A DNA stretch of 64,000 nucleotides from assembly GCA_049976445.1 (NCBI GenBank), contig JBMFIF010000002.1, forward strand, positions 5,115 through 69,114. Direction: 5' to 3'. Below the pieces are notes generated by a model, which saw only the letters and a program-made list of their open reading frames with translations, did not search any database and was not told the origin of the DNA. Source of the DNA: Thermoprotei archaeon (GTDB taxonomy: Archaea; Thermoproteota; Thermoprotei; Gearchaeales; WAQG01). Position 1 is the stretch's first letter, and each line of letters begins with the position of its first letter. Below are positions 3,667-56,150 of this stretch, in pieces. The position numbers and the translations under genes were made by a program.

Positions 3667-3686
3667 TCCATATTATGCACCTAGTT

Positions 3687-25379: not shown

Positions 25380-25571
25380 GCTGGCTTCATCTGCTGGTTC
25401 AGGGAGTGTCACGATTTCCTCGTCACATAGAGAATGCAACACTGAAAAACATGCTAAACGTTGGAACCTTGAACCGTAAGGTGTGCTTTCAACAAACGGA
25501 TTGGAGAACGACCAATGAAGCCTAACCGAAGAAAAAGCTGGAAGCTCTCAACTTAAGTCGAGGAGAGGACG
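25380..25571 (+). pseudogene. 3' remnant of an IS200/IS605-family tnpB gene plus right-end sequence
   Basis: Translates, with an internal stop, to ...RHIENATLKNMLNVGTLNRKVCFQQ...NEA*PKKKLEALNLSRGED. This resembles the TnpB C-terminus (DRD.NAA.NIL..GT.G...NACG...EA..L.RGEDV). It forms a GC-rich patch in AT-rich intergenic DNA. Confidence 0.5.
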
Positions 25572-25952
25572 TTACATACTAAGACTTAATAATGTTAATT
25601 CATCAATTGTTTGATTAAACAATGCCTCATAAAGACCAGCGACCCTCTCTAAAATAATAATACCTTTAGTTAACACGTTATACCTAAACTTTACTTGCAA
25701 CTCATCTATTGGAACAACATCAAAAGGAATTCTTAAAAACTCTTCTAATCTAGCAGAAAGTAATGCATAATATTTAAACTCCTTATTCATAGAATAAATG
25801 GCAATATCAACATCCCTAAAACTTTTTAACTCCACAAAACTACCAAATATGATTGCTAGAAGCACATCTTTTTCACTCTCAAAAAACTCTCTAATGGAAT
25901 TCATGACAGTTTTCTTATCAATCCTATAATACTTAAATCTTGAAAGCATCAC
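25572..25952 (-). CDS. minimal nucleotidyltransferase (MNT) antitoxin-type protein
   Basis: GSFVELKSFRDVDIAIY is the GS-x(n)-DxD NTase motif. Overlaps the upstream HEPN gene by 20 nt. Confidence 0.8.
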   Translation of the reverse strand: MMLSRFKYYRIDKKTVMNSIREFFESEKDVLLAIIFGSFVELKSFRDVDIAIYSMNKEFKYYALLSARLEEFLRIPFDVVPIDELQVKFRYNVLTKGIIILERVAGLYEALFNQTIDELTLLSLSM

Positions 25953-26355
25953 TAATCCTCCTAATAAAATTCATAACATTAACAAAATCACTTCTAATAT
26001 TCTCATATATCTTCTCGTCAATAATAATCCAATATCTATGAACAAGTAAATTTCGCAACTTAAACATGCTCACAAAATCCTTATACTCTTCATCAATCAA
26101 AAGACCCTTATCTCTTAAAATATTTAAGGCATGAATTGAAGATTCAGGTTCAACATTATAAAATCTCCTAACAATGTGAAGAGCTAAAGCACTCAAAGCT
26201 TCAGCAATCACAATGATATGATATCTAACTGCATACCTCTCAGTAAGACTTATTTCTTCAAACGACTTACTAACATAATCACTAATAATATTTATAGATT
26301 CCATAATATCTTTAATAAGTTTCTTAATAAAATCTCTATTAACATCCACTCTCAA
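25933..26355 (-). CDS. HEPN (DUF86) toxin-type protein
   Basis: RNLLVHRYW is the R-x4-H HEPN motif. About 140 aa. Paired with the MNT gene. Confidence 0.8.
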   Translation of the reverse strand: MRVDVNRDFIKKLIKDIMESINIISDYVSKSFEEISLTERYAVRYHIIVIAEALSALALHIVRRFYNVEPESSIHALNILRDKGLLIDEEYKDFVSMFKLRNLLVHRYWIIIDEKIYENIRSDFVNVMNFIRRISDAFKI

Positions 26356-26433
26356 TTCACTCCAAGAAAACTAAGAAACCACAATTTAAAAAGATATTCA
26401 ACAAACTCTCATAAAAACCAAAATAAATAAAAA

Positions 26434-26529
26434 TTAACGGGAATAAGCAAGACGCTCATACAAAAAAGAAGAAAACCAACAGAGCAATACATAAAGATAC
26501 AAGGCGTGTTCTCAAGCATGACTAATGAT
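26434..26529 (+). pseudogene. ghost fragment homologous to the 3' end of porB
   Basis: Translates to LTGISKTLIQKRRKPTEQYIKIQGVFSSMTND, compared with real porB LTGPSKILIDKNRRKSIEQYIKIQGRFSHMTDE (25145-25243). Hand alignment gives roughly 70 percent nucleotide identity over about 96 nt with one codon gap. Confidence 0.55.
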
Positions 26530-26672
26530 AAAAGAAGGACAAACTTCACCCTTCAGGGTGGAGTAAATTTAAATACTCAGACACACTATACTCTACAGTA
26601 GCACCCATAAAGGGGTGTAACCCTCAAGACCTCGGGGAACCCTCGCACCTTCAGGGCGGGGAAGAGGTCAGA
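26526..26672 (+). repeat. tandem/nested IS200/IS605 right-end-like relics (tnpB-tail motif)
   Basis: tgataaaagaaggacaaacttcacccttcagggtgg (26526-26561) and ccttcagggcggggaagaggtcaga (26648-26672) are separated by about 86 nt. Joined, they equal the single copy at 35195-35243 on the opposite strand. Confidence 0.5.
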
Positions 26673-26983
26673 CAAAAATTTAACTATCAATAAAATAATT
26701 AACAATTTTTGAAATATAATATTATTTTGTTATCCTGAATATCCTGCTGTGAGTATAAATAAGTATGTGCTGTTTGTATTAGTTATTATGACTAATGTAT
26801 GATTGCTATTGACCTGTTGTGGTCCTACATCGGCATAAAGTGTTATTAATGTTTTTGGTGTTACGGATTGGGAGTCTTGTCGAATATTATAATATCTGTA
26901 CGGTGGAAATATTATATCGTTTGTGGGTATGTTTGGTATATTTTGGGATGCGTTAGAAGTGTAAATTCTAGTTCTCATGATAA

Positions 26984-28093
26984 CTAAATGAGTTCGTTAA
27001 TTTTAGTAGTAAGTCTTTTATATTCATCTTCAATTTTAAGTGCTAGTTCATCTGGGTTTAATTTCATCTTTATTTGTGCTATTAATGCTGTTCCGCCTGC
27101 TCCTACTCCTTCCTTCACATAACCATTTTCGTACGCTTTAAGTCCATAAAATTTTGATTTCGAAAAATTTAGTGTTGTGGCAATTATTGGTATTTTTTCG
27201 ATTTGGCTTACTAAACCTATAATATCGGAACTCCTGTCTTCTATAATCCATTTAGTGGTTCCAATTGCTACCTTGTCTAAATTAATATTCTTATGTTTCA
27301 ATAGTGCTAGCACTGAAGACATTTGAGTTCCACCGGCTAATAATACATGAGAGTTTATTTTTACTATGCCCTCAGTTAATCCTGCCATAGCTATCATCAC
27401 AGGATCACCAACTTTGCTCGCAGCAAGTAAAGGATTTTCTTTAGCTTGCTTGATACTTAGGTTAGCATTTTTTAAGCTCTCCTCAGCTATCCTTATTTTT
27501 AGATCATGCGGGTTATTAGCATCTGCACTACTTATTTTGTATCTAGCGTCATAACCAAGGGCTAAGAGAAAAGTTAGAGTGGTTGTAGTGCCACCTGGTA
27601 TACTTTCACCGATGAGAACAGTATCAGCTAATAATCCCAACTCTTTACCAAAAAGTTTAGCATTTTCATATATTGTGATCGCATCATCATATTTCATGGC
27701 GTTTCCAGTCCTTATATCATTACCGACAACACCACCTACATCTATGAAAGGAACTTTAGGTTTTACATAACAACCAGCGTTTACTACAAAGAAGGGTATG
27801 TTGAGTAGTTGTAATACTGTCCTAGTTATTATTGCGGGTGTTGGAATACCATCAGGCGTTGTTGGTATTACGTTGAAACTGATAACCTTACCATAAAAAA
27901 GATACTCTATATCACCAGTCGGAGTATATAGTGTTGCTTCGGGGTTAGCCCCAGCTATACTAAGACCAGGAATTTTTGATGTTAATGTTGATCCTATTAC
28001 ATAGACAGCTAGCAGGTTAGATTTTTCTATACGTTTAGTGAATTGTTCTCCTTTTTCAGGCATGTACGCATACATAATACTCATACAAACCAC
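26984..28093 (-). CDS. cobT: archaeal CobT-like protein (UPF0284; nicotinate-nucleotide:dimethylbenzimidazole phosphoribosyltransferase analogue)
   Basis: GSTLTSKIPGLSIAGANPEATLYTPTGDIEYL and ESIPGGTTT match the archaeal CobT-type family pattern. Located in the cobamide cluster. Confidence 0.6.
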   Translation of the reverse strand: MVCMSIMYAYMPEKGEQFTKRIEKSNLLAVYVIGSTLTSKIPGLSIAGANPEATLYTPTGDIEYLFYGKVISFNVIPTTPDGIPTPAIITRTVLQLLNIPFFVVNAGCYVKPKVPFIDVGGVVGNDIRTGNAMKYDDAITIYENAKLFGKELGLLADTVLIGESIPGGTTTTLTFLLALGYDARYKISSADANNPHDLKIRIAEESLKNANLSIKQAKENPLLAASKVGDPVMIAMAGLTEGIVKINSHVLLAGGTQMSSVLALLKHKNINLDKVAIGTTKWIIEDRSSDIIGLVSQIEKIPIIATTLNFSKSKFYGLKAYENGYVKEGVGAGGTALIAQIKMKLNPDELALKIEDEYKRLTTKINELI

Positions 28094-29035
28094 CTAAACA
28101 GGATATGCTCCACATGTTCTACAATATTTTGAATCCGCTGGCACTCCAGCACCACAAAATGAGCATCTTTTTTCATTAGATTTGGGTTTAGGTATATTAC
28201 CGATAATCTCTTTGAACAATTTATAATAATATGCCTGTTCATAATCTCTTAGAATTATTTCTTTGCCCAATTTTTCGAACTCTTCTTTATTAATCATTTT
28301 ACTAATTATCTGTGTGAGGGTTGTGGAACCACTGCCAATTTCGATGGGATCTTTAGTTCTCCATACAATTTCGTCAGGTAGTAATCCTTCTATTGCTTTT
28401 CTGACAATCCATTTTCCATAAATACTGTTTCTTTCTTCATGAACCTTAAATTCAGGAGGAATGCTCAATGCAAAATCCACGAATTCACGATCAATATAAG
28501 GTTGTTCAATCTTTAACCCTAGGCTTTCACCTAGAGGAACAGCTGAAAAGAACCAACGTTCTGATAATTCTTTAATATATTTTTCAAGTTCTTGTGGTTT
28601 CATTTTATACATGTATGAGTAGCCGGCAAACAATTCATCACCACCATCACCTGTTACTATTGATTTGAGACCTAGCTGTTTCGCATAGGATAGTGCTATA
28701 TAAATTGTAATACTATTACGTATTTCCATCGGATCAAAAGTCCTAAGCACGTGAATGACATTTCTAACAGCCTCAAGGGCTTCATCCAATTTGAATATTT
28801 TTATCTTATGATCAAACCCTAAAAATTCTGTTACACGCTTAGAATAATAAAGATCAGGCCCAGGATTTTGTTCAAAAATTGCAGTAATAGCAACCGGTTT
28901 TAGGTTTTTCATTAAAAAGGCTAAAACACTGGTGTCAAGACCCCCAGAAAGAAGTATTGCTTCTCCTTGATGTCTTTTGACTGAAGCTTCCAGCTTATTA
29001 AGAAGTTCTTTTGTTAAAATATTCACTGTAATCAT
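28094..29035 (-). CDS. asparagine synthetase-like ATP pyrophosphatase domain protein (no glutaminase domain) with C-terminal zinc ribbon
   Basis: PP-loop LLSGGLDTS and an AsnB C-domain-like core (GDGGDELFAGY). C-terminal CSFCGAGVPADSKYCRTCG. Confidence 0.6.
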   Translation of the reverse strand: MITVNILTKELLNKLEASVKRHQGEAILLSGGLDTSVLAFLMKNLKPVAITAIFEQNPGPDLYYSKRVTEFLGFDHKIKIFKLDEALEAVRNVIHVLRTFDPMEIRNSITIYIALSYAKQLGLKSIVTGDGGDELFAGYSYMYKMKPQELEKYIKELSERWFFSAVPLGESLGLKIEQPYIDREFVDFALSIPPEFKVHEERNSIYGKWIVRKAIEGLLPDEIVWRTKDPIEIGSGSTTLTQIISKMINKEEFEKLGKEIILRDYEQAYYYKLFKEIIGNIPKPKSNEKRCSFCGAGVPADSKYCRTCGAYPV

Positions 29036-29036
29036 A

Positions 29037-29051
29037 TGGTTGGATTATCCA
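29037..29051. promoter_or_regulatory. candidate operator copy 1 (TGGATTATCCA palindrome) at the asnB-like promoter/start
   Basis: The exact 15-mer tggttggattatcca lies between a TATA-like tttaaata (minus strand, about 29059-29066) and the ATG at 29035. Confidence 0.4.
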
Positions 29052-29123
29052 ATCAAGTATTTAAACTTTTTGTATCCTCATGAAGATTAAACAATATGTC
29101 AGAAACGTTAGCTTTAAATTCTT

Positions 29124-29138
29124 TGGTTGGATTATCCA
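29124..29138. promoter_or_regulatory. candidate operator copy 2 (TGGATTATCCA palindrome) at the btuF-like promoter/start
   Basis: Identical 15-mer tggttggattatcca, downstream of the TATA-like ctttaaatt (about 29111-29119). It overlaps the annotated TTG start at 29127; the in-frame GTG at 29145 is an alternative leaderless start. Confidence 0.4.
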
Positions 29139-30383
29139 GACTTGGTGAATAACTTGAGTGATAGGAATACTCGTTACTTATTAAGTCTAATAATTATAAT
29201 AGTGATAGTACTGGGAGTTACTATACCTCTTTATATGGAAATTAATTCTTTAAGAGATGAAATTTCTAGATTACGTAATGATATATCAGCACTTAGTTTA
29301 AGTTCTAAGCAACTTACCTCACAGTTTAATAGTAGTCTCACACAATTAAATGCAGCTTATAAGAGCCTTGAAGATAGGTATAATAAATTATTTCAACAGT
29401 ATTCATCATTGTCTGAAAGTATTAAGTATCCTTTTACAATTACTGATGCTCTTGGAAGAACTGTAACGATAGTTTCAAGGCCAGTTCGAGTTATAAGTAC
29501 GGCACCTAGTGTGACAGAAATGCTTTTTGCTATAAATGCAGAAAAACTTATTGTAGGTGTTGATAAGTATTCAGATTATCCGCCTACAGTAAAAGATTTA
29601 GTTAAAAATAGTACAATTAAGCTGGTTGGTGGTTTTTCGACTGTTGATGTGGAGGCTATTGTAGCACTAAAGCCTGATATTGTATTTATGACACCGGGCG
29701 TGCAAACACCTTTCGTATATAGGTTAGCAGAACTTGGACTAACCGTCGTCGCTTTAAAGGAAGATAGTATATCGGATGTGTTTGATTCGATAATGCTCGT
29801 AGGGAGAATTCTTGATAAGATTGATGGGGCATTAAACGTTGTCGCATCTATGAAGTCTAAAATCACTTATGCGTTCTCAAAGGTTGAGAATTATATTAAA
29901 TCTGTTAATATTACAAGGGTTAAAGTGTATTGGGAAGTATGGCCTGAACCAATATATACCGTTGGTTCACAAAATTTTATAAATGATATAATTACACTAG
30001 CAGGAGGGGTTAATATTTTTGGTGATATAAAATCAGGCTATCCAGTCGTAAGTTCTGAGGAAGTTATAAACAAAACTCCTGATGTTATAATAACAACTGA
30101 TCATGGTGGGGTTTATGGATCGCCACAGGATGTATTAAATATGATCAGGAATAGAACTGGATGGAATGTAATACCAGCTATAAAAAGTAATAGAGTTTAT
30201 GTGTTAACGGGCCAGTTTGGGTCTATGTTTATAAGGCCTGGTCCAAGAGTTGCAGATGCAATTCTTCAACTTGCCGTAATATTATATCCTGAGGCATTTG
30301 GTATGAGTAAAATCATGATACCGAACATAATAAGCACATCGTTTAACGTTACAACATATATTAGTTTGTTAATTGTTTCATAA
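29127..30383 (+). CDS. BtuF/FhuD-type (class III) substrate-binding protein, membrane-anchored, with N-terminal coiled coil
   Basis: N-terminal TM segment, a heptad-like Ser/Leu-rich stretch, then a periplasmic-binding-protein core (RVISTAPSVTEMLFAI, ALKPDIVFM, TPDVIITT). Followed by FecCD permease and ATPase genes. Confidence 0.7.
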   Translation: MDYPDLVNNLSDRNTRYLLSLIIIIVIVLGVTIPLYMEINSLRDEISRLRNDISALSLSSKQLTSQFNSSLTQLNAAYKSLEDRYNKLFQQYSSLSESIKYPFTITDALGRTVTIVSRPVRVISTAPSVTEMLFAINAEKLIVGVDKYSDYPPTVKDLVKNSTIKLVGGFSTVDVEAIVALKPDIVFMTPGVQTPFVYRLAELGLTVVALKEDSISDVFDSIMLVGRILDKIDGALNVVASMKSKITYAFSKVENYIKSVNITRVKVYWEVWPEPIYTVGSQNFINDIITLAGGVNIFGDIKSGYPVVSSEEVINKTPDVIITTDHGGVYGSPQDVLNMIRNRTGWNVIPAIKSNRVYVLTGQFGSMFIRPGPRVADAILQLAVILYPEAFGMSKIMIPNIISTSFNVTTYISLLIVS

Positions 30384-31410
30384 TACAATGAGCAGTAATT
30401 ATATACAAAGGAGATATTCCCGCCTTATTTTTTCTGTTATTGTTCTAATCATGTTAGTAGGAGTTTTAAGTATATTATCCATTAGTGTTGGTTCTGCGTT
30501 TATAAATCTGCCGGAATCTTTAAAAGCTTTGGTTGATTCTGATAACGTTGATGTATATACAAGAATTATAATATGGGAGATTAGAGTTCCTAGGACATTA
30601 AGCGCTATTTTTATAGGAATGTTGATGGCTTTAGCTGGGCTTTTTATGCAGACTGTTACTCTGAATCCTCTTGCTGATCCTTATTTAACAGGTATGGCTT
30701 CTGGTGCACTGTTAGGTGTTAGTATAACTATTGTGCTTTCACCTTTAATCGTTAGTCCTTATGTTATAGTTATCTCAGCGTTCTTTGGAGCCTTGTGCGC
30801 CATGATATTAACACTTCTAATTGCAAGTAAATTTCGCTTAGATCCAATAGGACTCATACTGGGAGGTGTTGCAGTCTCTATGATTTTTTACTCATTTTCT
30901 GCGATACTTCAGTTTATTGGAGGTGAAAAGATGGTTATGATAATTATATGGAGTCTTGGAAGCTTGAGTACTGCATCATGGTCAAGAACATGGTTTACTG
31001 GCATTACTGCAATAATTCTTATACCCCTTTCTATAATTATGTACAAATCGTTGAATGCTTTATTACTTGGTGATGAGAATGCACAAAGTATTGGTGTAAG
31101 TCCGAAGTTAACACGATCATTTTCCTTGCTAATATCCTCAATTGCCACGGCAATCTCAGTGTCAATGTTTGGTGTGATAGGCTTTGTTGGATTAGTAGCA
31201 CCTCATTTAGCACGTCTCGCATTAAGGAGCGGTGATCATTTAATAGTCATACCAGTCACATGTCTTGTTGGATCCGCTATCATGCTTTTAAGTGATGTGA
31301 TAGCTAGAATAATAGGTTCTCCTGGAGAATTTCCGTTAACTCCTATAATGAGTTTAATTGGTGCTCCGCTACTTATTTATTTAATGAGTAGGAGGTTTAA
31401 AAATGGTTAA
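30373..31410 (+). CDS. btuC: FecCD/BtuC-family ABC permease
   Basis: About 10-TM protein with a typical FecCD pattern (RVPRTLSAIFIGMLMALAGLFMQTVTLNPLADPYLTG ... GAPLLIYLM). Confidence 0.85.
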   Translation: MFHNTMSSNYIQRRYSRLIFSVIVLIMLVGVLSILSISVGSAFINLPESLKALVDSDNVDVYTRIIIWEIRVPRTLSAIFIGMLMALAGLFMQTVTLNPLADPYLTGMASGALLGVSITIVLSPLIVSPYVIVISAFFGALCAMILTLLIASKFRLDPIGLILGGVAVSMIFYSFSAILQFIGGEKMVMIIIWSLGSLSTASWSRTWFTGITAIILIPLSIIMYKSLNALLLGDENAQSIGVSPKLTRSFSLLISSIATAISVSMFGVIGFVGLVAPHLARLALRSGDHLIVIPVTCLVGSAIMLLSDVIARIIGSPGEFPLTPIMSLIGAPLLIYLMSRRFKNG

Positions 31411-32179: not shown

Positions 32180-32181
32180 TA

Positions 32182-34235: not shown

Positions 34236-34342
34236 TTAAAAAACTTACCAGAAAGCACGTGTTCACAAAATGAAATGATCTGATTTTTCGTTATCATTTA
34301 GTTATTTGCGTTAATTTTAAAATATAAGTTTTATAAATTATT

Positions 34343-35158: not shown

Positions 35159-35194
35159 CCCTAAAAACCTTTAGCTTATCCAGCTATCCTTTCT

Positions 35195-35243
35195 CTGACC
35201 TCTTCCCCACCCTGAAGGGCGAAGTTTGTCCTTCTTTTATCAA
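35195..35243 (-). repeat. IS200/IS605 right-end-like relic, inverted copy of the 26.5-kb relic
   Basis: The reverse complement reads tgataaaagaaggacaaacttcgcccttcagggtggggaagaggtcaga. This matches 26526-26561 plus 26648-26672 almost base for base. Confidence 0.5.
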
Positions 35244-35298
35244 CGAAGAGTGAAGCTTAAATAAATTTTTCAAATAGAAGAATCGTAAGTGAACAAAA

Positions 35299-37768: not shown

Positions 37769-37802
37769 TTAAATCAAAGATAAATTTGACATATTATTTA
37801 TT

Positions 37803-37902
37803 TTATACTCAAGAAGATACTAATGAAATTAAAGAAACATTACTAAAAATTAATACCATGGTCAATGAACCGAAAAATAGCTCGATGATACTTAAAACAA
37901 TA
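37803..37902 (+). repeat. direct repeat DR-A, copy 1 (about 100 nt)
   Basis: ttatactcaagaagatactaatgaaattaaag...aatagctcgatgatacttaaaacaata aligns with 40488-40590 (about 80 percent by eye). It includes an ATG plus 16 codons ending in a stop here. Confidence 0.6.
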
Positions 37903-37924
37903 TTCTAGGATGTTCATTGCAGAA

Positions 37925-37990
37925 ACAGTGTACCACTATTCGTTATCCCTACCCCTCCATGAGGGATTACGGTTCCATCCTTCAGTACTA
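37925..37990 (-). repeat. IS200/IS605 right-end-like relic
   Basis: The minus strand reads ggaaccgtaatccctcatggaggggtagggataacgaatag. It has the same GAAxC...C.T.A.GG.G..G tail pattern as the other relics. Confidence 0.4.
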
Positions 37991-38278
37991 TGTTTAAGAC
38001 TCCAACGATATCTGAATTCATTACTTAATTACAGTTTGGACAATAAATAATCCTTTATGCAATGCTCTTTAGTCCAAAAATTTCAATCGGTTTTGATTAT
38101 TTTCTCAGTAAATTATAAAATAAGTTCAATTTCAAGATAACTCATATATAGGTCAGTAATTATAGTAAAAATTTAAACACTAAACTTTTCACTAATAAAC
38201 AACTAGATAATTATTGTCTTGAAAAACATTTAGAAAACATTTAAATGCAGTTTCTTACACAATACTACGGGAAAGTTC

Positions 38279-38530
38279 GTGGAGAAATCAATTGAAGAGT
38301 TTGAGAAAGAAATCGAGAAAGTAAGTAGATACAAGATTAAAGCCATGATTGCATTACTTAAGCTCAGAGAAGAATATGGTGCGGAATATTTAAAAAAGAA
38401 ACGTGGAGCTATACGAAATAAGGATGAACTTCGTAAACTTGCTGAAGCCTGTAAATTAAACTGGAAATTTATGGAAGAGGTGGGAATAATACGACGCATC
38501 AACAACAAGGAAATAATAATAGCAATATGA
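38279..38530 (+). CDS. small helical protein, upstream partner of the NTase-fold gene
   Basis: 83-aa ORF with a GTG start and a 4-nt overlap (ATGA) with the next gene. No motif recognised. Confidence 0.4.
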   Translation: MEKSIEEFEKEIEKVSRYKIKAMIALLKLREEYGAEYLKKKRGAIRNKDELRKLAEACKLNWKFMEEVGIIRRINNKEIIIAI

Positions 38531-39120
38531 TCTCAGAATTTAGAAATCAATTTAAATTGTTTAGTGAAAAACTATTATTCATCAAAGATACTACTATGAG
38601 ATTTCTTATGTTATTGGCATTCATTAATACTTTTTTAGAAAAACATGCCTTAGGCAAAATAATAATCTCTAGAGGTTTTGCTGCTGAATTTTATAGCGGG
38701 GGTGGGTACAAAACTTTAGATGTTGATGTGATAGTTGAAGGAAAAACTGAAACCGTAAACCTGTTAAAAGAACTTTTAAAATCAATTGGCTATATTGAAT
38801 CTGGCAGATTTTATGTAGCAACACTATCAAGTTTAGTTGATAAAGCGCTCGACATAGTCGGAGTAGTTTATGACAAACCTAAACCACCCATAAAAATAAA
38901 AACAAACGAATACCATGTTTACATGATACCACCTGAAGAAGCAATAATTTATGCTTTAGCAGCAGCTAAATACTGGCTCTCAGTTTCAGATTTTGAAAGA
39001 GCTGTCTTAGTTTATGTAGTACAAAAAGAAAACCTTGATATCGAATACCTTAAAAAACGAGCTAGAGAAGAAAATGTTACAGAGTATCTAACCAAAATTA
39101 TAGAAATCGCAGAAAAATAA
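38527..39120 (+). CDS. nucleotidyltransferase-fold-like protein (possible AbiEii/DUF6036-type toxin)
   Basis: ISRGFAAEFYSGGGYKTLDVDVIVEG fits a hG-x(n)-DxD polymerase-beta-type NTase pattern. The two-gene overlapping module sits in an accessory islet. Confidence 0.4.
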   Translation: MISEFRNQFKLFSEKLLFIKDTTMRFLMLLAFINTFLEKHALGKIIISRGFAAEFYSGGGYKTLDVDVIVEGKTETVNLLKELLKSIGYIESGRFYVATLSSLVDKALDIVGVVYDKPKPPIKIKTNEYHVYMIPPEEAIIYALAAAKYWLSVSDFERAVLVYVVQKENLDIEYLKKRAREENVTEYLTKIIEIAEK

Positions 39121-39206
39121 TCCTATCTATATCACCTGTGGGTCTTATAATTGTGTAATTTCTTATAAAAATTAACAAAAAAGAGAAGATCGAAAAACTA
39201 TGAAAA

Positions 39207-39390
39207 GTGAAGAATAAAGAATATAATGACCTATCTCCTAAAGATCGGAATATAGCTATGGTTTTTCAAAATTATGCTCTCTATCCTCATATGAGTGTTT
39301 ATGATAATATTGCATTTCCTTTAAAAATGAAAAATTTTCTAAACTTGAAATTGATAAGAAGGTTAAGTATGTTGCTGAACTATTCAGGGC
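39207..39390 (+). pseudogene. fragment of a MalK/UgpC-type sugar ABC transporter ATPase
   Basis: [35 protein letters not shown] is the Q-loop region only. Walker A is missing upstream. A frameshift at the aaaaatttt run is needed to read [16 protein letters not shown]. Homology ends at an IS right-end-like relic. Confidence 0.7.
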
Positions 39391-39442
39391 GGAGAGCTCT
39401 CCGACGAGTTTCGTGCTCATGGAGGTCAACGGCCTACACCCC

Positions 39443-39470
39443 AGTCAGTTCTGTAAACACAGAACTGACT
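39443..39470. repeat. perfect 12-bp stem-loop at the end of an IS right-end-like relic
   Basis: agtcagttctgt-aaac-acagaactgact. It is preceded by ttcagggcggagagc and ccgacgagtttcgtgctcatggaggtcaacgg (tnpB-tail pattern). Confidence 0.55.
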
Positions 39471-40354: not shown

Positions 40355-40487
40355 GATTTATTTTAGTTTTACAAGTTAATAAGCTTACTTGTTAATTGGT
40401 TAATAGTGAAGTTACAAAAGAATGAAGTCCTAAGCTTTAAAGGGCGAGAAGATCATATATTAAACTCTGGAAATTTGTAATTTGATA

Positions 40488-40590
40488 TTATACTCAGGAA
40501 GATATTAATAAAATTAAAGATAACTCACTATCAAAAATTGGTATGATAGTTAATGAGCTGGCGAATAGTTCGATGATACTTAAAACAATA
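40488..40590 (+). repeat. direct repeat DR-A, copy 2 (about 103 nt), forming the 5' end of the permease ORF
   Basis: See 37803-37902. An IS right-end-like relic (gaagtcctaagctttaaagggcgagaagatcat, about 40425-40457) lies just upstream. Confidence 0.6.
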
Positions 40591-42287: not shown

Positions 42288-42389
42288 ATACTTATAACTA
42301 AAATTAAAATCTTATTCTTTATACTAAGTAAGAGTTACCTGTGTTTATGTTTATATTTATTTGTGTTTTTGTGTTATGTGGTGCTAGAA

Positions 42390-43319: not shown

Positions 43320-43432
43320 TTTTTTATTAAATTTTGCAAAATTAAAGTGGTTATTGGTTTGCATATACATGATTGTTATTTTATCGTTTGTAAAAATATA
43401 TTAATCAATTAATTTATTTTCAGTATGCTGAA

Positions 43433-44152: not shown

Positions 44153-44220
44153 CCTCCTATATTTTGTGAAGATAAACTAAAAACTTAAATTTATCTGAGA
44201 ATTATTAATTTGAGTAAAAA

Positions 44221-47799: not shown

Positions 47800-47809
47800 G
47801 TGATTATTT

Positions 47810-49027: not shown

Positions 49028-49038
49028 TAGTTTAATTT

Positions 49039-50127
49039 TTAAGTATCTTTCTCCATGCTTTTTATTTTCTTTAATATGTAACGGTCTATTATTGCTGTTA
49101 GACCGTATTTACTGAATGCTTCAAGTTCAGCTTTTAGGCCTATCTTCTTAAATGCTCTAAGTTGTTCTGCCCATATGCCATCGCTATATCTAGGGTCTCT
49201 TTCTAATGTTATTAAACGTTGTACATCGATAGTGTTTAGTTTAAGTGCAGGTAAGTCGTATTTTTTAATATCTGTTGCCCATATGCCCACCCACTTGGCA
49301 TTAGGTGTTGCTAGAAATGGTATATGAGCTGCTTGTGCTGATCCTGATGTGATGACCCTTGCGATGTGCATTCCCCATGGATCCGCATCGGTAAGAATGT
49401 ATACCGGTAGTCCTAATTCTTCATGTAATCTTCTTATGACAATTCTGGTAAATCTTGGTGCTTGGCCTCCGGTATCTATAAGGATTGCATTTAGTTTGTT
49501 GTAAAGCCCTTCTTCTATGAATCTTCTAAACATTGCTCCTTTTTCTACAGCTATAACCATTCTTGCGTTTGTTTCGATGAATTTTGCTGTTGCAATAGAA
49601 AGTCCTATGTTTTTGCCATCAGGATCTGACATTAAGTTTACCTTTAATCCTGCGTGGCTTTCAGGTGTTGTATATTCAATGGTCAAATCACCAAATATCG
49701 AGCTTTTCTCTTCAGGTAGAATGTTAAATGTTTCGCGTGGTACACCTAGTATGCTTTCTAGCTCAACAACTACATTATCTGATTCATCTTGTTCATCAAA
49801 CTTGATTGCTTCGTCGTTGAATGAATGATAGTATAGATCTCTGAGACTGCACGATTTGCCCTTATCTACTAGATTTGTTTTTGCAAAAGCTGCAACCCAC
49901 ATTAATCTTGCGAATGCCTTTGATTGTTTTATGTTTGAACTGCTCCTTATTGACATTTTTTCTCCTAATTTTACTACTCCTTTTTCTGGGTCATATATGA
50001 TGTTTGAAACGCTTCTTACAGGCAGTTTTATTTTTGGATATAAACCAGATTCTAACTGTTTATATACTTCAAGACCAAGAAGTCTTAATCGTTCCGATAT
50101 ATTCATTCTATCGTTATTCATACTCAT
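49039..50127 (-). CDS. top6A: DNA topoisomerase VI subunit A (Spo11 family)
   Basis: 5Y-CAP region with SLRDLYYHS. Toprim motifs VEKGAMF (Glu) and ILTDADPWG (DxD). Confidence 0.9.
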   Translation of the reverse strand: MSMNNDRMNISERLRLLGLEVYKQLESGLYPKIKLPVRSVSNIIYDPEKGVVKLGEKMSIRSSSNIKQSKAFARLMWVAAFAKTNLVDKGKSCSLRDLYYHSFNDEAIKFDEQDESDNVVVELESILGVPRETFNILPEEKSSIFGDLTIEYTTPESHAGLKVNLMSDPDGKNIGLSIATAKFIETNARMVIAVEKGAMFRRFIEEGLYNKLNAILIDTGGQAPRFTRIVIRRLHEELGLPVYILTDADPWGMHIARVITSGSAQAAHIPFLATPNAKWVGIWATDIKKYDLPALKLNTIDVQRLITLERDPRYSDGIWAEQLRAFKKIGLKAELEAFSKYGLTAIIDRYILKKIKSMEKDT

Positions 50128-51683
50128 TGTTTTGCTACCTCCTCTATTTGAGTTTCAGTAAGTACTGGTTCAGGTAATCCTGTAAGTTCAGAAGAATACT
50201 TGGCAATGAGCTTTAAATATTTACTTAAAACATTGAGTCGTGTACGATTTATCTCTTCAAAGCGTTTCTTATTTAGATATGCAGATAAGTGTCTTGCATT
50301 TTCTCTTAATCCAAGCTCTATTTCTCTTGCTACCTCAGGCTGTTCTGCGATGTACTCTTTTCCTACAGTCTTATAAGGTATTTTTGTGGAACAAATGTGG
50401 ACAAAGAATGCGATGGGTTCATTGTAGATTTTAATCTTGTAATTGTTCCAGTCAATCCTTTTAATAACTTTCATTGAGACATCACTGTATACATCATAAA
50501 GGAGTGGAATTTTATTAGCAAACCTGTAAAGATTTACCTCACCTTCGCCTGCAGGTTGTATTTTTCCTCCATAAGCAATTGCAGTTTCAACAATAAATGG
50601 ATGACCTTCATAAGATGATGGAGGTCTTTGAACAGCATGCACAAATTCTGCACCTGTAGATTCTTTAATGCCAATTTTTAATAGGTCTTCACCTATGGGT
50701 GAAAGACCAGATGCATCAGGAGGTAAAAATTCGCTAAAGTTTTTCATTGCCGCAGAAAGCTTTACTATCATATCCTGGTTTAATTTTTCAACACGCAGAT
50801 CTGGCTGAAAACCTACATACTCTAGGAATTTTTCTGCTTTCTTAGGACCCACACGCTGAAAATTCTCTATTAAAAATTCTTTTAGAGTCATACCTTTAGA
50901 TTTCGTTATCAACCTTTTTAATAACTCTACATCTACACCATGCGGATGTGGTAAGATTTCATGTGGTTTCTTTGGCATATTTTCTGTCTTTCTTTCAAAC
51001 GTATACATCACACCATCTGGATCAATAAACCTGATCGATGCGTAAGGTAGTATCATAGATGTTTGCCACAAATACTCTATTATACGATTTTTTGCTTTAT
51101 AATAATCTCCTATAAAAGAAAAGCTTATCATTGTTCCATGCCAATCATCCGTGTTCTCAAGTATTTTTCTTTTAAGTTGTAAAGGTTTATTTCTGGTTAT
51201 GTCTATCATTAATTCATAGTAATAAATAAACCGAGATCCTAATGTTGCGGATGCGACTTCAACTGTAGTATTAGTGGTAATTTGCCCATAAAGTATAGCC
51301 ATTTTGCCGCCTAGGCCAAATAATCCTCTGGCTTGTCTTAACCTGTATTTAGAACCATAAAAAACTTGCCCAAACGCTGAAGGAATATGCTCTTGAGGAA
51401 CTCCACCACCATTATCTATAACACGTATTTTAAGTAATTCTCCATTCTCCGTCATTTTGCTAGTAAGCACTCCGTTAGTGTCATCAACTTTTATCATGCG
51501 TATTTCAACATCAGGAGGTATTCCATTATTCTCACATGAATCTAAAGAATTCTCGACAAGTTCCCTGAGTATTGTATATGTAGCTCTGGCAGAATTGTCA
51601 AAGCCCGCTATTTCCTTGTTTCTATAGAAAAAATCAGCAGGAGAAATGGATTCATACTTTTCTTCTATCAAATCAAGCTTCAC
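50124..51683 (-). CDS. top6B: DNA topoisomerase VI subunit B (GHKL ATPase)
   Basis: Bergerat-fold N box LRELVENSLDS and G1 box VIDNGGGV. 4-nt overlap with top6A. Confidence 0.9.
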   Translation of the reverse strand: MKLDLIEEKYESISPADFFYRNKEIAGFDNSARATYTILRELVENSLDSCENNGIPPDVEIRMIKVDDTNGVLTSKMTENGELLKIRVIDNGGGVPQEHIPSAFGQVFYGSKYRLRQARGLFGLGGKMAILYGQITTNTTVEVASATLGSRFIYYYELMIDITRNKPLQLKRKILENTDDWHGTMISFSFIGDYYKAKNRIIEYLWQTSMILPYASIRFIDPDGVMYTFERKTENMPKKPHEILPHPHGVDVELLKRLITKSKGMTLKEFLIENFQRVGPKKAEKFLEYVGFQPDLRVEKLNQDMIVKLSAAMKNFSEFLPPDASGLSPIGEDLLKIGIKESTGAEFVHAVQRPPSSYEGHPFIVETAIAYGGKIQPAGEGEVNLYRFANKIPLLYDVYSDVSMKVIKRIDWNNYKIKIYNEPIAFFVHICSTKIPYKTVGKEYIAEQPEVAREIELGLRENARHLSAYLNKKRFEEINRTRLNVLSKYLKLIAKYSSELTGLPEPVLTETQIEEVAKQ

Positions 51684-52236
51684 CTCCTAAACTTTTTAAT
51701 GATCTTATTTTCTGAGCTGACTTAAAGCGTTCTAAGAATCTATAAACTGCAGTATGCGGCGAACCATCAATCAACATTTCTATAGCCCTTTTAGCTGCTT
51801 GAAGTTGCTCAAAATTACCTATTATGACTACCTCATTATTGCTAATACTAATACTTGCACCAGTAAACTCGATTATTGTGGATTTAGTCTTACCACCAGC
51901 TCCGATAATTCTCCCCTTCACTCTAGTAATGTCATTAGACGATGATAAATAGTCCTTAAGATTTATTATTTCCATAAAAGTATCAGGGTCTCGTAACCTT
52001 AATGTATCGTTTGGATCAAATCCGTATCCGTAGGCTTGGATCATTTCTCTTGCTCTTATTATATCGCTCTGTCTAGAATCTTTATCAACATCAATAGTAA
52101 TTTCACCAGTCTCTCTCTTTACAGTAATTTTGGTTCCAGTAACTTTTTCTACCTCACGAATAAACCAAGAATCTTTACCTAGTATAGATTTAAGACGAGT
52201 CTCAGGAATACTAATAACAATCCTTGAAGGATACAT
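51673..52236 (-). CDS. double KH-domain RNA-binding protein (Dim2/Pno1-like)
   Basis: Two KH units (ILGKDSW..., IIGAGGKTKSTI with GxxG). Start chosen at MYPSRIV (52236) within the longer ORF. Overlaps the top6B start by 11 nt. Confidence 0.6.
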   Translation of the reverse strand: MYPSRIVISIPETRLKSILGKDSWFIREVEKVTGTKITVKRETGEITIDVDKDSRQSDIIRAREMIQAYGYGFDPNDTLRLRDPDTFMEIINLKDYLSSSNDITRVKGRIIGAGGKTKSTIIEFTGASISISNNEVVIIGNFEQLQAAKRAIEMLIDGSPHTAVYRFLERFKSAQKIRSLKSLGGEA

Positions 52237-52336
52237 ACTGCTCACTGCCAATCCAAAATAAATTATACTTAATCTTATTTTTATCTTGTTACCACAACTG
52301 TTTAAAGGTACAGTCAATGAATATAAATGAAATATT

Positions 52337-52906
52337 TTATCTTGAATCGCTTAATAATTCTTCTATTAAATGTTTTAATACGCTTAATTCTCCTTTTTCA
52401 ACAAGCTTTAAAGCTTCGGATGTACTATTATTTACAATATCGTTCACATTGTAACCAGACGACAAATATCTTCTACCTTGCAATACCGTGGATACATGAT
52501 CGGCCAGTTTTACTAATTGTGCCTCAATACTCTTTCTTTCTAAATATTCTGCAAAAAATTTCTTTATAATATCCATTTCATCCTTAAACATATCAGAGAG
52601 AATCATCATTTCTATGTTTTCCTTCATGCTCATTGGAAAGTACTTACCTAATGATTTAGGAATGTCTCCAGTGATTGCCTCAGCCCAATCATGAATTATA
52701 CTCATAGAAAGCGCCTTTGATAAATCAACTTGAACACCAGAATATATAACTCTTTGAGAAAACATGAGTACAAGACTTGAAACCTCAAAAATGTGTTCTG
52801 CAACAGTTTCACATAATTGCAATGGAACACCACGTTGAATCCATCCAATCCTAGGAATATTCTTCAAAACACCTATGAACTCAACAAAATCATGAAACTT
52901 TGACAT
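52337..52906 (-). CDS. HD-domain phosphohydrolase (YfbR-like 5'-nucleotidase family)
   Basis: ETVAEHIFEV (His) and IIHDWAEAITGDIP (HD...D) motifs. Confidence 0.7.
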   Translation of the reverse strand: MSKFHDFVEFIGVLKNIPRIGWIQRGVPLQLCETVAEHIFEVSSLVLMFSQRVIYSGVQVDLSKALSMSIIHDWAEAITGDIPKSLGKYFPMSMKENIEMMILSDMFKDEMDIIKKFFAEYLERKSIEAQLVKLADHVSTVLQGRRYLSSGYNVNDIVNNSTSEALKLVEKGELSVLKHLIEELLSDSR

Positions 52907-52989
52907 ATGAATACCTATTTAATCTTCGCATAAATATTTTACCATCAAATATGCAAAGCTAATCTCGTTATACGCTATGGGCATGATGG

Positions 52990-53035
52990 GGTTGTGAAGC
53001 ATGAAGCTCCCCAATTTTAGTTGGGAGTAGTTCAC
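52990..53035 (+). repeat. short IS200/IS605 right-end-like relic
   Basis: gaagctccccaattttagttgggagtagttcac contains the hairpin ctcccc..ttgggag. It shares the tail pattern of the other relics. Confidence 0.4.
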
Positions 53036-53083
53036 TTTAGAGTTAAGTTTATTTTTAATGGAGGTTTTAGTAAATAGATTAGA

Positions 53084-54721
53084 ATGATTGATGTAAGATA
53101 TTTAATTAATCAAATGAGCCTTGAAGAAAAAATTGGTAACCTGTTTATGTTTGGTTTTGACAGTACTGATGACAGTAGAGCTGTTACAGAAAGATTAAAA
53201 ATTATTATCGACCAGTATCATGTTGGAGGAATAATTTATTTTTCTAGAAATTTAAAGAGTGCTAAACAAGCTGCTGAACTTTCTAAATCAATACAATCGT
53301 TATCAAGGCGTAACAATTATGTGTTGCCCGTTATCATAGCAACGGATCAAGAAGGTGGTAATGTAGTCAGACTAAGAGATGGCACAATATTTCCTGGTAA
53401 TATGAGTCTTGGTGCTATAGGTTCTAAAAAGATTACTTATGAGGTAGGTCGTATTATTGGTAAGGAATTGATCTCAGTAGGAATAAACATGAACTTGGCA
53501 CCAGTTTTAGATGTGAACACAAATCCTGTAAATCCTGTGATAGGTATTAGATCGTTTGGTGGTGATCCTGAGATGGTCGCATCGTTAGGTGGAGCATACA
53601 TTGAAGGTCTTCATTCTGAAGGTGTACTAGCCGTAGCAAAACATTTTCCAGGACATGGTGACTCATCGTTGGATTCTCATTTGGATCTTCCAATAATAAA
53701 TAAAGATCTTGACGAATTAATGAAGATTCATATAAAACCATTCATGGATGCAATTAGTATGTTTAATGTTGATGCAATAATGACTGCACATGTAGTATAT
53801 CCAGCTCTCGACAAAGAAAATCCTGCAACGCTTTCTAGAAAAATATTAAGAGAATTTTTGCGCGAAAAATTAGGATTCAATGGGGTTATAATGACAGATG
53901 ATATGGAGATGAGAGCAATAAGTGATAGATATGCACCTGGTGATGCTTCTATTAAGGCATTAAAGGCTGGTGCAGACCTCATACTTTTCTCTCATACATA
54001 TTCTAAACAAATTGAGGCTTATAATACTGTTCTTAAGGCAGTAGAAAATGAGTATATTACAAATGATGAGTTAGATGAGAAGGTTAGAAGGATTCTTCAG
54101 CTTAAACTTCGCGTTATAGATCATATGAGTAAAATAGATCCATCGATTGTCGGTAAGAAGGAACATCGTGACTTTGAATTAGAAGTCGCTAGAAAGGCTG
54201 TAACATTGTTAAAAAATAATAATAGAGTATTACCAATTAAAGGTGAACGAGAGGTTATAATTGTTGAACCAAAAATAGGTATTTCATCACAAGTTGAAGA
54301 AAAATATCAACCATTATATTTATCTGAAATACTTAAGAATTATCTTAAAATAAAGAGTGTAGTAGTTAATAAGGATTTAAACGATGATTATTACAGTAAG
54401 TTTTCCAAACTCTTAGAAAGTAATAGTGCTGCTGTATTTTTAATCGTAATTTCGTCTAAAGATGGTGTTGAATTCTTTAATAAAATAGTGCAGAATAATA
54501 ACTATAATAATGATACTGTAGTGGTTCTTTTTAAGAATCCTTTTCTCATAAATTATTTAAATACTAATCGCAGTGATTCAATAATAATAGGATACGCTTA
54601 TACACAGTGTATGATTATTGCAATTAGTGAGCTTATCATAGGAAAAATTAAGCCTAATGGTAAATTGCCAGTTAACTTAAATGAAGAGTATAAAATTGGT
54701 TATGGTATGAGAGATTTTTAG
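53084..54721 (+). CDS. glycoside hydrolase family 3 (NagZ-like beta-N-acetylhexosaminidase / beta-glucosidase)
   Basis: KHFPGHGDSSLDSHLDLP and GVIMTDDMEM (nucleophile Asp region). No signal peptide is evident. Confidence 0.8.
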   Translation: MIDVRYLINQMSLEEKIGNLFMFGFDSTDDSRAVTERLKIIIDQYHVGGIIYFSRNLKSAKQAAELSKSIQSLSRRNNYVLPVIIATDQEGGNVVRLRDGTIFPGNMSLGAIGSKKITYEVGRIIGKELISVGINMNLAPVLDVNTNPVNPVIGIRSFGGDPEMVASLGGAYIEGLHSEGVLAVAKHFPGHGDSSLDSHLDLPIINKDLDELMKIHIKPFMDAISMFNVDAIMTAHVVYPALDKENPATLSRKILREFLREKLGFNGVIMTDDMEMRAISDRYAPGDASIKALKAGADLILFSHTYSKQIEAYNTVLKAVENEYITNDELDEKVRRILQLKLRVIDHMSKIDPSIVGKKEHRDFELEVARKAVTLLKNNNRVLPIKGEREVIIVEPKIGISSQVEEKYQPLYLSEILKNYLKIKSVVVNKDLNDDYYSKFSKLLESNSAAVFLIVISSKDGVEFFNKIVQNNNYNNDTVVVLFKNPFLINYLNTNRSDSIIIGYAYTQCMIIAISELIIGKIKPNGKLPVNLNEEYKIGYGMRDF

Positions 54722-54729
54722 GTGATCTA

Positions 54730-55842
54730 ATGGAGTTGTATTATGGAACACCTGAAGAAGCCGGATTAAATAAGGTACGATTAGATAAGATTCATGAGTT
54801 TATGAAAAAATACGTTAATGATGCCTTTCCAGGTGCTGTAATACTTATTGCGCGTAAAAGTGTAATTGCATTTCATGAAGCATATGGCAGCTCACAGATT
54901 ATACCAGTAAAAAGAGAAATGACAAGGGAGACAATATTTGATCTAGCATCTCTTACTAAACCTCTAGCAACATCAATAATAACTATGAGACTAGTTGAAG
55001 ATGGTCTTATAAATCTAAGACAAAAAATTTCAACAATATTTGATGAAATAGGGAAAGATGAAATAAAGCGCGAAATTACATTATGGCATTTGCTCACTCA
55101 CACATCTGGGTTACCTGCATGGGAACCTTTTTACAAAGGCTTTAAAGACAAAAAAGAAATAATTAAAGCTGCACTTAGCGCATTTCCTTCAAGCAAACCC
55201 GGTGAGAAATATACATATAGTGATCTAGGCTATATTATTTTAACTGGTATTGCAGAAGAAGTTTCTGGTAAAACATTTGACAAATTATTCGAAGAATATG
55301 TAGCATCACCATTAAGCCTTAAAGATACAATGTTTAATCCACCGGATTATTTAAAATCCCGCATAGCAGCTACAGAATTATGCGAATGGAGAGGAGAAGT
55401 TTTAGTTGGTTCTGTTCATGATGAGAATGCATATGCAATGGGTGGTGTAAGCGGTCATGCTGGACTTTTCTCAACAGCATTGGATATCGCTAAGATAGCA
55501 CAAATGATGCTTAACGGTGGAATCTATGGATCAAAAGAAATCTTATCTAGATCTTCCGTTCAGATTATGATAAAAAATCATGTTAAAAATTTAGGTGCTG
55601 GTTATGGTTTAGGGTGGATGATAAATAATGCCCCCAATGGAACATCAGCTGGAGATCTGTTTTCTAAAGAATCTTTTGGACATACTGGCTTTACAGGAAC
55701 ATCTCTTTGGGTTGATCCGGAAAAGGAGTTAATAGCAGTTTTACTTACTAATAGAATACATCCCTCAAGACAAAATACAAAACTTATAGAACTAAGACCA
55801 AAAATACATAACCTGATAGCATCAACTTTAACAAGATATTAA
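54730..55842 (+). CDS. beta-lactamase-fold serine hydrolase (class C / esterase / D-aminopeptidase-like)
   Basis: SxxK (SLTKP), YSDLGY (Y-x-N equivalent) and HTGFTG (KTG equivalent). AGGTGA SD precedes the ATG, 8 nt after the GH3 stop. Confidence 0.75.
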   Translation: MELYYGTPEEAGLNKVRLDKIHEFMKKYVNDAFPGAVILIARKSVIAFHEAYGSSQIIPVKREMTRETIFDLASLTKPLATSIITMRLVEDGLINLRQKISTIFDEIGKDEIKREITLWHLLTHTSGLPAWEPFYKGFKDKKEIIKAALSAFPSSKPGEKYTYSDLGYIILTGIAEEVSGKTFDKLFEEYVASPLSLKDTMFNPPDYLKSRIAATELCEWRGEVLVGSVHDENAYAMGGVSGHAGLFSTALDIAKIAQMMLNGGIYGSKEILSRSSVQIMIKNHVKNLGAGYGLGWMINNAPNGTSAGDLFSKESFGHTGFTGTSLWVDPEKELIAVLLTNRIHPSRQNTKLIELRPKIHNLIASTLTRY

Positions 55843-55865
55843 TTTCTGAAATTCACATACTTTCT

Positions 55866-56150
55866 GTTGGTAGTTGAATCATTTTAGGATAAATTTTATA
55901 CTGTTTTAAGAAATGATGGGTATGAATTGGTTCATACTAATCTGGTTCCACTACCGTTCTAGAGGGAAAAGAAATCAAATGCATAAGAGGACCCTACAAT
56001 CATATCAGGAGGAAGCTCCAGAAGAAGGGACTCCTAAAAAAGGATAGAGGAGGCATGAGCCCTCTTGAACTGGCAAATGAGGTTGGAGGATAAAGCCCCC
56101 AGCTGAACATCAGAAGCTCAGCCTTTTAGGAGTAGCTCATATAATCGACA
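55866..56150 (+). mobile_element. non-autonomous IS200/IS605-derived element: repeat DR-B copy 1 plus tnpB-tail relics
   Basis: 55866-55953 matches 60517-60605 and contains the hairpin gtatgaa-ttgg-ttcatac. 56000-56140 contains ...gaactggcaaatgaggttggaggataaagcccccagctgaacatcagaagctcagccttttaggagtagctc (tnpB-tail pattern). Confidence 0.45.

Follow-up and report, generated by a model that had tools for sequence, protein, structure and literature searches.

Probable remnants of several TnpB-carrying IS200/IS605-type transposons, including miniature elements, in an AT-rich thermophilic archaeon

Transposons of the IS200/IS605 type use a Y1 transposase to insert on the 3' side of a short target, which is not duplicated. 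Here, a set of short GC-rich patches was analyzed in a 64-kb stretch (the window, to which all coordinates refer) of contig JBMFIF010000002.1 from a Thermoprotei archaeon (assembly GCA_049976445.1). An initial annotation had regarded these patches as right-end relics of such transposons. They are very probably the remnants of several different TnpB-carrying IS200/IS605-type (IS1341-like) transposons in this AT-rich archaeon, among them two copies of the non-autonomous miniature elements known as PATEs (palindrome-associated transposable elements).

The closest described systems are the PATEs, including terminal-only forms, of Haloquadratum walsbyi and Halobacterium salinarum, where VNG_R0052 is an example (PMC3119063, PMC4615843). 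They contain no open reading frame (ORF) and no terminal inverted repeats, carry near-terminal palindromes identical to those of transposons of the IS605/IS1341 type, and are inserted next to a target of 4–5 nt without duplication. Deletion of the core between two similar palindromes produces terminal-only PATEs of 52 bp, which occur as strain-specific insertions (PMC3119063). PATEs whose left end (LE) is fused to the right end (RE) are transcribed, and the HgcC RNA shares an RE-like UUCA tetraloop with them (PMC4615843). The omega-RNAs of PATEs would need TnpB in trans (PMC10055086). In the omega-RNA or right-end RNA of complete TnpB elements such as ISDra2, the scaffold overlaps the 3' end of tnpB and the RE, and the guide is derived from the flank (PMC8612924, PMC10055086). 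A bacterial counterpart is found in the REP/REPIN sequences with RAYT, which are intergenic single hairpins of ~35–45 nt derived from IS200/IS605-like ends and served in trans by a Y1 enzyme; this analogy was drawn in PMC4615843.

The window holds two copies of a repeat, here called family A, and these resemble the systems above. Two patches that had been noted as separate loci (26541–26561 and 26636–26672) are the two ends of one element of 142 nt, and the other copy, of 44 nt, lies on the minus strand at 35.2 kb. True repeats among the patches were limited to this family: 26526–26561 and 26648–26676 were 93–97% identical to 35190–35242 (minus strand), and a family A covariance model, run with filters off, detected no further copy in the window. 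Both copies lack an ORF and are too short for a transposase, and TnpB and TnpA signals were absent from them. Their near-terminal palindromes have homologues in both ends of IS605/IS1341-type transposons, there are no terminal inverted repeats, and for the 44-nt copy the comparison of an empty with a filled site indicated insertion 3' of a short target without target-site duplication. On these sequence features, the family A copies are firmly classified as PATEs. Both are located directly 3' of (T)TGAT without a duplication, and thus carry the insertion signature of 'peel-and-paste' by a Y1 transposase (TnpA). The TTGAT-type motif 5' of the LE is the same as the target, or target-adjacent motif (TAM), of ISDra2.

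Some differences from the described systems were observed. Compared with the haloarchaeal PATEs, the host is thermophilic, AT-rich and encodes CdvC, the lengths are 142 and 44 nt instead of 52 nt, and the parent is a TGAT-targeting, HgcC-like TnpB family. Unlike in an ISDra2-type omega-RNA, no TnpB is encoded in cis, the scaffold amounts to ~76 nt in the 142-nt PATE and ~25 nt (the last hairpin) in the 44-nt copy, and RNA and cleavage are only predicted. In contrast to REP/REPIN, no RAYT-like gene was identified here, only two copies are present in the window, and the sequence is that of TnpB element ends.

The parent transposon of family A was recognized in other archaea. The 24-mer CCTTCAGGGYGGGGANGAGGTCAG, which represents the RE hairpin, was scanned by exact match in genome and metagenome collections and was found at at least 240 loci in many archaeal phyla; its hosts include Caldisphaera, Desulfurococcales, Thermococci, Archaeoglobi, Nitrososphaeria, Marsarchaeota, Vulcanisaeta, Acidianus, Methanomethylicota, and Nanoarchaeota. 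The majority of the sites were without a long ORF. A hidden Markov model (HMM) built from 19 intact archaeal TnpBs matched the adjoining ORF at 36 of the 247 sites listed (~15%), and the five adjoining ORFs that were tested carried both the OrfB_IS605 and the Cas12f1-like_TNB domain of Pfam. When the 3' ends of intact tnpB genes were compared with the patches, as the initial annotation had proposed, the 24-nt core was seen in many archaea to lie at the 3' end of TnpB genes confirmed by Pfam. Several intact genes end in '...ALQGGEEV...', as the window copies do in translation, in agreement with the TnpB-like ending predicted before. The homology of family A and of the 53.0-kb hairpin (see below) to external TnpB ends had E values of 1e-7 to 1e-24.

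The alignment of intact copies gave a parent element of ~1.5 kb. Its LE reads (T)TGAT/AAAGCGAACGACAAACCTCGCCC-TTC(T)A-GGGGCGG (the slash marks the junction), and a TTTAAA box comes next, ~30 nt upstream of the tnpB ATG; the RE reads ...GTAGCACCCGTAAAAGGGGTGTAACCCT.AGACCTCGGGGAACCCTCGCCCTTCAGGGCGGGGAGGAGGTCAG/, the end being also written ...GGGGAGGAGGTCAG/. Discrete size classes of ~1495 nt, ~297 nt (at least 15 copies), 234–240 nt, and 151 nt were found elsewhere, and all of them kept at least the 76-nt RE module. At least 12 other loci had the 44-nt architecture, and in every case it followed a TGAT-like motif. The commonest solo form was an ORF-less sequence of 36–43 nt, TTACAAC/TGAAAGCCTCGCCCTTCAGGGCGGGGAGGAGGTCAG, with at least 47 copies; its core GAAAGCCTCGCCCTTC appears in the primers used for rapid amplification of cDNA ends of the Halobacterium PATE RNA VNG_R0052 (PMC4615843).

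The 142-nt PATE consists of an LE part, ~20 nt of junction sequence, and the 76-nt RE module; its covariance-model score was 90.7 bits (E=5e-19). External copies from Caldisphaera, Desulfurococcaceae, and Marsarchaeota, some of which are joined to an intact tnpB, shared 89–93% identity with the RE module. The module was folded into a hairpin (GCACCC/GGGGTG), a long-range stem (GACCTC/GAGGTC), and a terminal UUCA hairpin, with z=-2.7. Across 46 copies, 98.6% of the cells were paired, and two pairs of the first hairpin showed compensatory changes (AU to UA or the reverse); the remaining helices were invariant, partly as the search pattern had fixed them. In a permissive Rfam scan, positions 26558–26684 aligned with HgcC (RF00062) over the full length of the model (positions 1–130) at 25.4 bits, half of the gathering score of 50 (E=5.5e-4 on a 401-nt stretch), with no other match besides HgcC at 26.5 kb. 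The 3' 60 nt were nearly identical to the consensus GGAACCC.CGC.CCUU.AGGGCGGGGA.GAGGUCAG, including the UUCA tetraloop, whereas the 5' half aligned poorly. Judged by sequence, the 142-nt PATE is clearly related to HgcC but not a member by the Rfam criterion. Of sotRNA sot0042 (RF02656), only the last 23 positions matched, at 14.6 bits vs. 88.

The window was ~99.9% identical to contigs of GCA_049973215.1, GCA_049700375.1, and JGI 3300039096 and matched none of them exactly, and therefore represents a fourth strain; gene content in the region was the same across the four genomes. The 44-nt insert was missing from the other three, and it was the only real structural difference across ~60 kb. An apparent indel at 60411–60447 in one sister assembly turned out to be a run of Ns, i.e., a scaffold gap. 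On the minus strand, the empty site reads ...CGTTGAT/AGAAAGGATAGC, with AGAAAGG after TTGAT, and the filled site reads ...CGTTGAT[AAAAGAAGGACAAACTTCGCCCTTCAGGGTGGGGAAGAGGTCAG]AGAAAGG, so that the insert is exactly 3' of TTGAT without target duplication. A sister contig (L302, ~16370–16415, minus strand) also held a terminal-only copy, AAAAAGTTTTGAACTACTGTTCAGGGCAGGGAGGAGGTCAG, which is degenerate and has its stem broken; it lies ~5 kb beyond the start of the window and ~100 nt from the contig end.

Differences among the strains were also found inside the 142-nt PATE, at 26568–26569, 26628–26630, 26634, and 26637: the JGI contig had a 3-nt deletion and a 1-nt indel, and JBMFJU had two single-nucleotide polymorphisms (SNPs). 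Several of the few strain differences in 21 kb fall within this element, which suggests that the repeat changes faster than its surroundings.

Table 1. Features of the window that were assigned to, or compared with, TnpB-carrying transposons.
Feature	Position	Strand	Evidence or remark
TGAT target/TAM-like motif	26526..26529	+	Directly 5' of the PATE LE; also precedes the LE of intact ~1.5-kb elements and at least 12 terminal-only copies elsewhere
142-nt family A PATE	26530..26671	+	LE joined to the final 76 nt of the RE; TnpB-only IS200/IS605 element with tnpB deleted
LE subterminal hairpin CACCC-TTCA-GGGTG	26547..26560	+	Homologous hairpin in the LE of intact elements
AAATTTAAATA, TATA-box-like, from the LE; putative promoter	26565..26575	+	~28–30 nt upstream of the RE module
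76-nt RE module, omega-RNA 3' scaffold-like, ending ...GGTCAG	26596..26671	+	Homology to external copies
RE hairpin	26642..26661	+	Matches the RE end of intact ~1.5-kb TnpB elements
Flank directly 3' of the RE; predicted TnpB guide position	26672..26687	+	Conservation among copies ends at GGTCAG
44-nt terminal-only PATE (5' part of the LE, one shared hairpin, 3' tail of the RE)	35195..35238	-	Only in this strain of four; architecture at at least 12 other loci
TTGAT target/TAM-like motif	35239..35243	-	Abuts the LE of the 44-nt element
Family B TnpB RE terminal hairpin GAAGCTCCCCAATTTTAGTTGGGAGTAGTTCAC	52994..53035	+	nhmmer E=9e-8, profile from IMG/VR sites
Family B RE relic (probable, decayed); ends in GAAGCTCAGCCTTTTAGGAGTAGCTCAT	56065..56140	+	84% identity to Archaeoglobales copy; nhmmer E=0.009–0.017
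Pseudogene fragment, probably of the TnpB C-terminus, containing Zn-finger CPNC, a stop codon, DIVGVLNIVLK, and the RE-like hairpin CCCTC-ATG-GAGGG	37917..38060	-	Weak profile matches
GC-rich patch with imperfect TTAA-loop hairpin; TnpB origin unsupported	25535..25571	+	nhmmer E=0.3–1.2
Weak resemblance to family B RE, stem broken	40425..40457	+	Resemblance without profile support
Frameshifted sugar-type ABC transporter ATPase pseudogene; outside the family	39207..39441	+	NCBIfam GlcV, UgpC, MalK, E ~1e-22, profile positions 64–140

The history proposed for the two PATEs is as follows. The 142-nt copy has kept the LE, with its subterminal hairpin and TATA-like box, together with the structured, HgcC-related 3' part of the omega-RNA or right-end RNA. 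The 44-nt copy would be the product of recombination between the near-identical LE and RE hairpins, leaving the 5' tail of the LE, one hairpin, and the 3' tail of the RE. For movement, TnpA is assumed to be supplied in trans. The TATA-like sequence is a putative promoter because of the conserved TTTAAA upstream of tnpB in intact elements, and transcription of the 142-nt PATE would probably start from this inherited LE promoter near 26592–26598, where the RE module has its first base. Reading through GGTCAG, the transcript may extend into the flank ACAAAAATTTAACTAT, which would serve as the guide of an omega-RNA-like RNA, and a TnpB encoded elsewhere could use this guide to cut element-free alleles (TGAT plus flank). 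The 44-nt copy is probably too short to act as a source of guides.

These results changed the annotation of the two copies in part. The label of tail relics was right in that the copies come from the 3' or right end of a TnpB transposon; however, each family A copy is a complete miniature element that has the two ends of the transposon. The idea of orphan omega-RNA loci does not suit the 44-nt copy, which can hardly be an omega-RNA gene because nearly all of the RNA scaffold is missing, and the idea of a TnpB acting in trans on PATEs had already been published (PMC10055086). It had been proposed to check whether the 16–20 nt downstream of each relic match other genomic or viral sequences. The flank 26672–26687 had no second match in the window, and the 20-mers of TAM plus flank (TGAT plus flank) of both family A copies gave no match in IMG/VR.

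The other patches belonged to different families. Family B was defined by the motif GAAGCY N8-24 GNAGYTCAY, taken from an intact TnpB end (locus L235) and a relic (locus L008). The motif had two matches in the window, 53003–53035 and 56113–56140, vs. 0.03 expected. A tighter motif, GAAGCTCC N8-20 GGAGTAGYTCAY, was found at 50 IMG/VR sites, nearly all with compensated stems; 14 of these sites are preceded by an ORF of at least 330 aa, and the TnpB HMM matched 12 of the tested ORFs of at least 200 aa. The 53003–53035 site is a clear TnpB RE hairpin. For the 56.1-kb site, the part covered by the profile from the IMG/VR sites was 56110–56139, and the identity with an ORF-less copy from a metagenome-assembled genome of Archaeoglobales (locus L008) covered 56 nt, which makes 56065–56140 a probable decayed relic of a family B RE. 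Exact scans of IMG/VR with the 56.1-kb and 53.0-kb sequences gave no matches.

The intergenic segment 55903–56155, which holds the 56.1-kb relic, differed from the sister strains at 13 positions and by one indel in 253 nt (~5.5%), compared with ~0.1% elsewhere, and one assembly (L248) was recombinant between two haplotypes there. Gene conversion with other copies may account for this variability, or the segment may be a recombination tract. An 86-nt direct repeat (88% identity) was shared by two intergenic regions, 55869–55954 and 60520–60605. Its hairpin GTATGAA-TTGG-TTCATAC was kept through an A-to-G change (a G-U pair), and it had no match in Rfam; the repeat might represent the left end of the 56-kb relic.

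At 37.9 kb, the minus-strand translation IIYCPNCN*VMNSDIVGVLNIVLKDG matched the last 23 positions of Cas12f1-like_TNB (PF07282; E=7.6e-4, 20 bits, below the cut-off of 26.3), positions 362–387 of 389 of the NCBIfam profile guided_TnpB (NF040570; E=0.026, 13.8 bits), and our own TnpB HMM (E=0.076). These weak matches point to a probable C-terminal pseudogene fragment of TnpB. The family B sites at 53.0 and 56.1 kb and the 37.9-kb site would then be what is left, after decay, of the right end or C-terminus of other TnpB elements. The right end of the 37.9-kb relic abuts a truncated copy of the 5' region of an ABC-permease gene.

The patches at 25.5 and 40.4 kb had no support as TnpB right-end relics, since neither resembled a TnpB 3' end or protein significantly. 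The 25.5-kb patch had no match in Pfam or NCBIfam, nor in tblastn and blastn searches against plasmids, and an exhaustive phmmer search of 1.84 billion proteins with the translated frame at 25.4 kb returned two spurious matches, a tandem-repeat artefact and a eukaryotic C2-repeat protein. The 40.4-kb site was matched by no profile or model and was folded no better than shuffles. A TnpB tail was ruled out for 39385–39470, where the GC-rich patch is the conserved core of an ABC ATPase pseudogene (E ~1e-22) plus a hairpin. The latter is a perfect 12-bp inverted repeat, AGTCAGTTCTGT-AAAC-ACAGAACTGACT, at 39442–39470, just past the end of the ATPase homology (39441) and unique in the window. A blastn-short search with the relics outside family A against 1.56 Mb of archaeal loci gave no meaningful matches.

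Taken together, the observation of GC-rich patches was sound. When intergenic 30-nt windows with at least 53% GC were scanned over the whole 64 kb, 10 patches were found, nine of which coincided with the noted loci, at 25.4, 26.5 (two), 35.2, 37.9, 39.4, 53.0, and 56.0 kb (two); the 40.4-kb site was below the threshold. The hairpins quoted for them were also present, that of the 26.5-kb LE as given in Table 1 and CTCCCC..TTGGGAG at 53007–53027. The claim of one family at eight or more loci, in contrast, was not sustained, as the loci fall into at least three unrelated sequence families. The motif said to be shared, GAA.C....C.TT.A.GG.GG.GA.G., matched one of the nine listed sites (35202–35227) and three unrelated places when up to three mismatches were allowed, and a generic descriptor (GAAG, hairpin, TTNA loop) was at the shuffle background (one observed vs. 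0.82 expected). An origin from a TnpB right end was supported for four of the nine listed loci and is probable for two more; it failed at 39.4 kb and had no support at 25.5 and 40.4 kb. The only GC-rich intergenic patch away from the noted loci (67% GC) lies at 3629–3686 between two minus-strand genes. It could form a hairpin, CGCCGC..AGGC...GCCT..GCGGCG, and had no match in Rfam.

Several points weigh against the origin from TnpB-carrying transposons or against the activity proposed for the PATEs. Neither the window nor the ~9 kb of contig flanking it in a sister strain contained tnpA or tnpB, two of the listed loci had no significant support, and the 39.4-kb locus was something else. The terminal hairpin of the 142-nt PATE has an extra A (bulge) compared with all 45 other copies, the upstream part of its scaffold is deleted and the 76 nt kept may be too little for TnpB, and it fell short of the HgcC gathering score. 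Within a population differing by only ~0.1%, the 44-nt copy was either acquired or lost seamlessly, and four unrooted genomes fit both insertion and excision. Part of this could be explained if the family A and B copies were inert decay products, neither transcribed nor used as guides, and if the presence or absence of the 44-nt copy came from replication slippage or repeat-mediated deletion without a transposase. The lack of tnpA and tnpB in view agrees with this, as do the clear degeneration of the family B and 37.9-kb relics and the imperfect repeat AAAAGAAGGA / AGAAAGGA flanking the 44-nt element, and repeat-mediated deletion of PATEs has been documented (PMC3119063). We nevertheless consider it doubtful: the boundaries of the indel match, to the nucleotide, the TTGAT/LE and RE/flank junctions of the intact elements and of at least 12 independent 44-nt copies, the exact microhomology available for slippage is only 1 nt, and independent deletion derivatives all retain at least the same RE module of 76–80 nt.

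Two other explanations concern the patches as a whole. GC-rich islands in an AT-rich genome are a classic signature of non-coding RNA genes, and the patches might be independent structured RNA genes of the host, like those known from GC-rich islands of AT-rich hyperthermophiles, such as HgcC, with a cellular function unrelated to transposition. The full-length alignment of the 26.5-kb copy with HgcC and its better fold than shuffles would fit, and over-expression of a PATE RNA improved the growth of Halobacterium (PMC4615843). Such an origin is very unlikely, however, in view of the family A sequences being the two ends of a transposon that is intact elsewhere, and of the 44-nt copy being dispensable, as it is missing in three near-identical strains. 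Besides, no patch other than the 142-nt PATE was folded better than shuffles, and nothing in the window reached an Rfam gathering score. It is scarcely credible that the common look of the nine patches is merely an artefact of composition, produced by a loose motif and GC-rich sequence in DNA of 33% GC. The homology of family A and 53.0 kb to external TnpB ends refutes this for 26.5, 35.2, and 53.0 kb and leaves it standing at 25.5, 39.4, and 40.4 kb alone, consistent with the literal motif fitting a single site, the generic descriptor at background, the ABC pseudogene at one site, and the two sites without support.

If the patches are remnants of TnpB-carrying transposons, the GC-rich islands in this AT-rich archaeal genome would be mostly transposon debris and not unknown RNA genes. 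PATEs, terminal-only PATEs, their transcription (HgcC and sotRNA), and the supply of guide RNA to TnpB in trans have all been published already. The present copies extend PATEs and their terminal-only forms from haloarchaea to a thermophilic lineage and to an HgcC-like TnpB family, an incremental gain; the useful addition is the strain polymorphism with its empty and filled sites. This clean natural pair for the 44-nt element in a thermophilic archaeal population could be used to probe the smallest substrate of an IS200/IS605 transposase, and the 142-nt PATE could show whether an element without genes supplies a working guide RNA to TnpB in trans. We speculated further that the 44-nt single-hairpin element is itself mobile, as a minimal natural Y1 transposase substrate in archaea that was inserted within the last ~0.1% of divergence, and that, separately, the 142-nt PATE is a self-contained guide-RNA gene that programs a TnpB elsewhere against element-free alleles, or has been co-opted for host regulation; this extended version is unlikely.

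The window was confirmed as archaeal by its genes for topoisomerase VI, CdvC/Vps4, Hjc, and ribosomal protein S25e. The statement that it has no intact tnpA or tnpB was correct: neither a Y1 transposase nor OrfB/TnpB occurred among the precomputed Pfam annotations of the called genes, and the TnpB HMM matched no ORF of the window. No tRNA genes were detected in the 64 kb, and the patches are thus not tRNA-linked integration sites.

A toxin–antitoxin pair of a HepT-like RNase and an MNT nucleotidyltransferase (25572–26355, minus strand) was located between the 25.5-kb patch and the 142-nt PATE. Beside the 37.9-kb relic, the upstream region and the first ~16 codons of an ABC-permease gene (40543..) were duplicated, with ~80% identity between 37797–37902 and 40482–40590. 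Together, the duplication and the ATPase pseudogene at 39.2–39.4 kb resemble the ruins of a second ABC transporter operon, now interrupted by two ORFs without a Pfam match (38279–39120). In the gene of a glycoside hydrolase of family 3, six SNPs were found in ~430 nt (53200–53632) in comparison with the sister strains, and this cluster may be a recombination tract.

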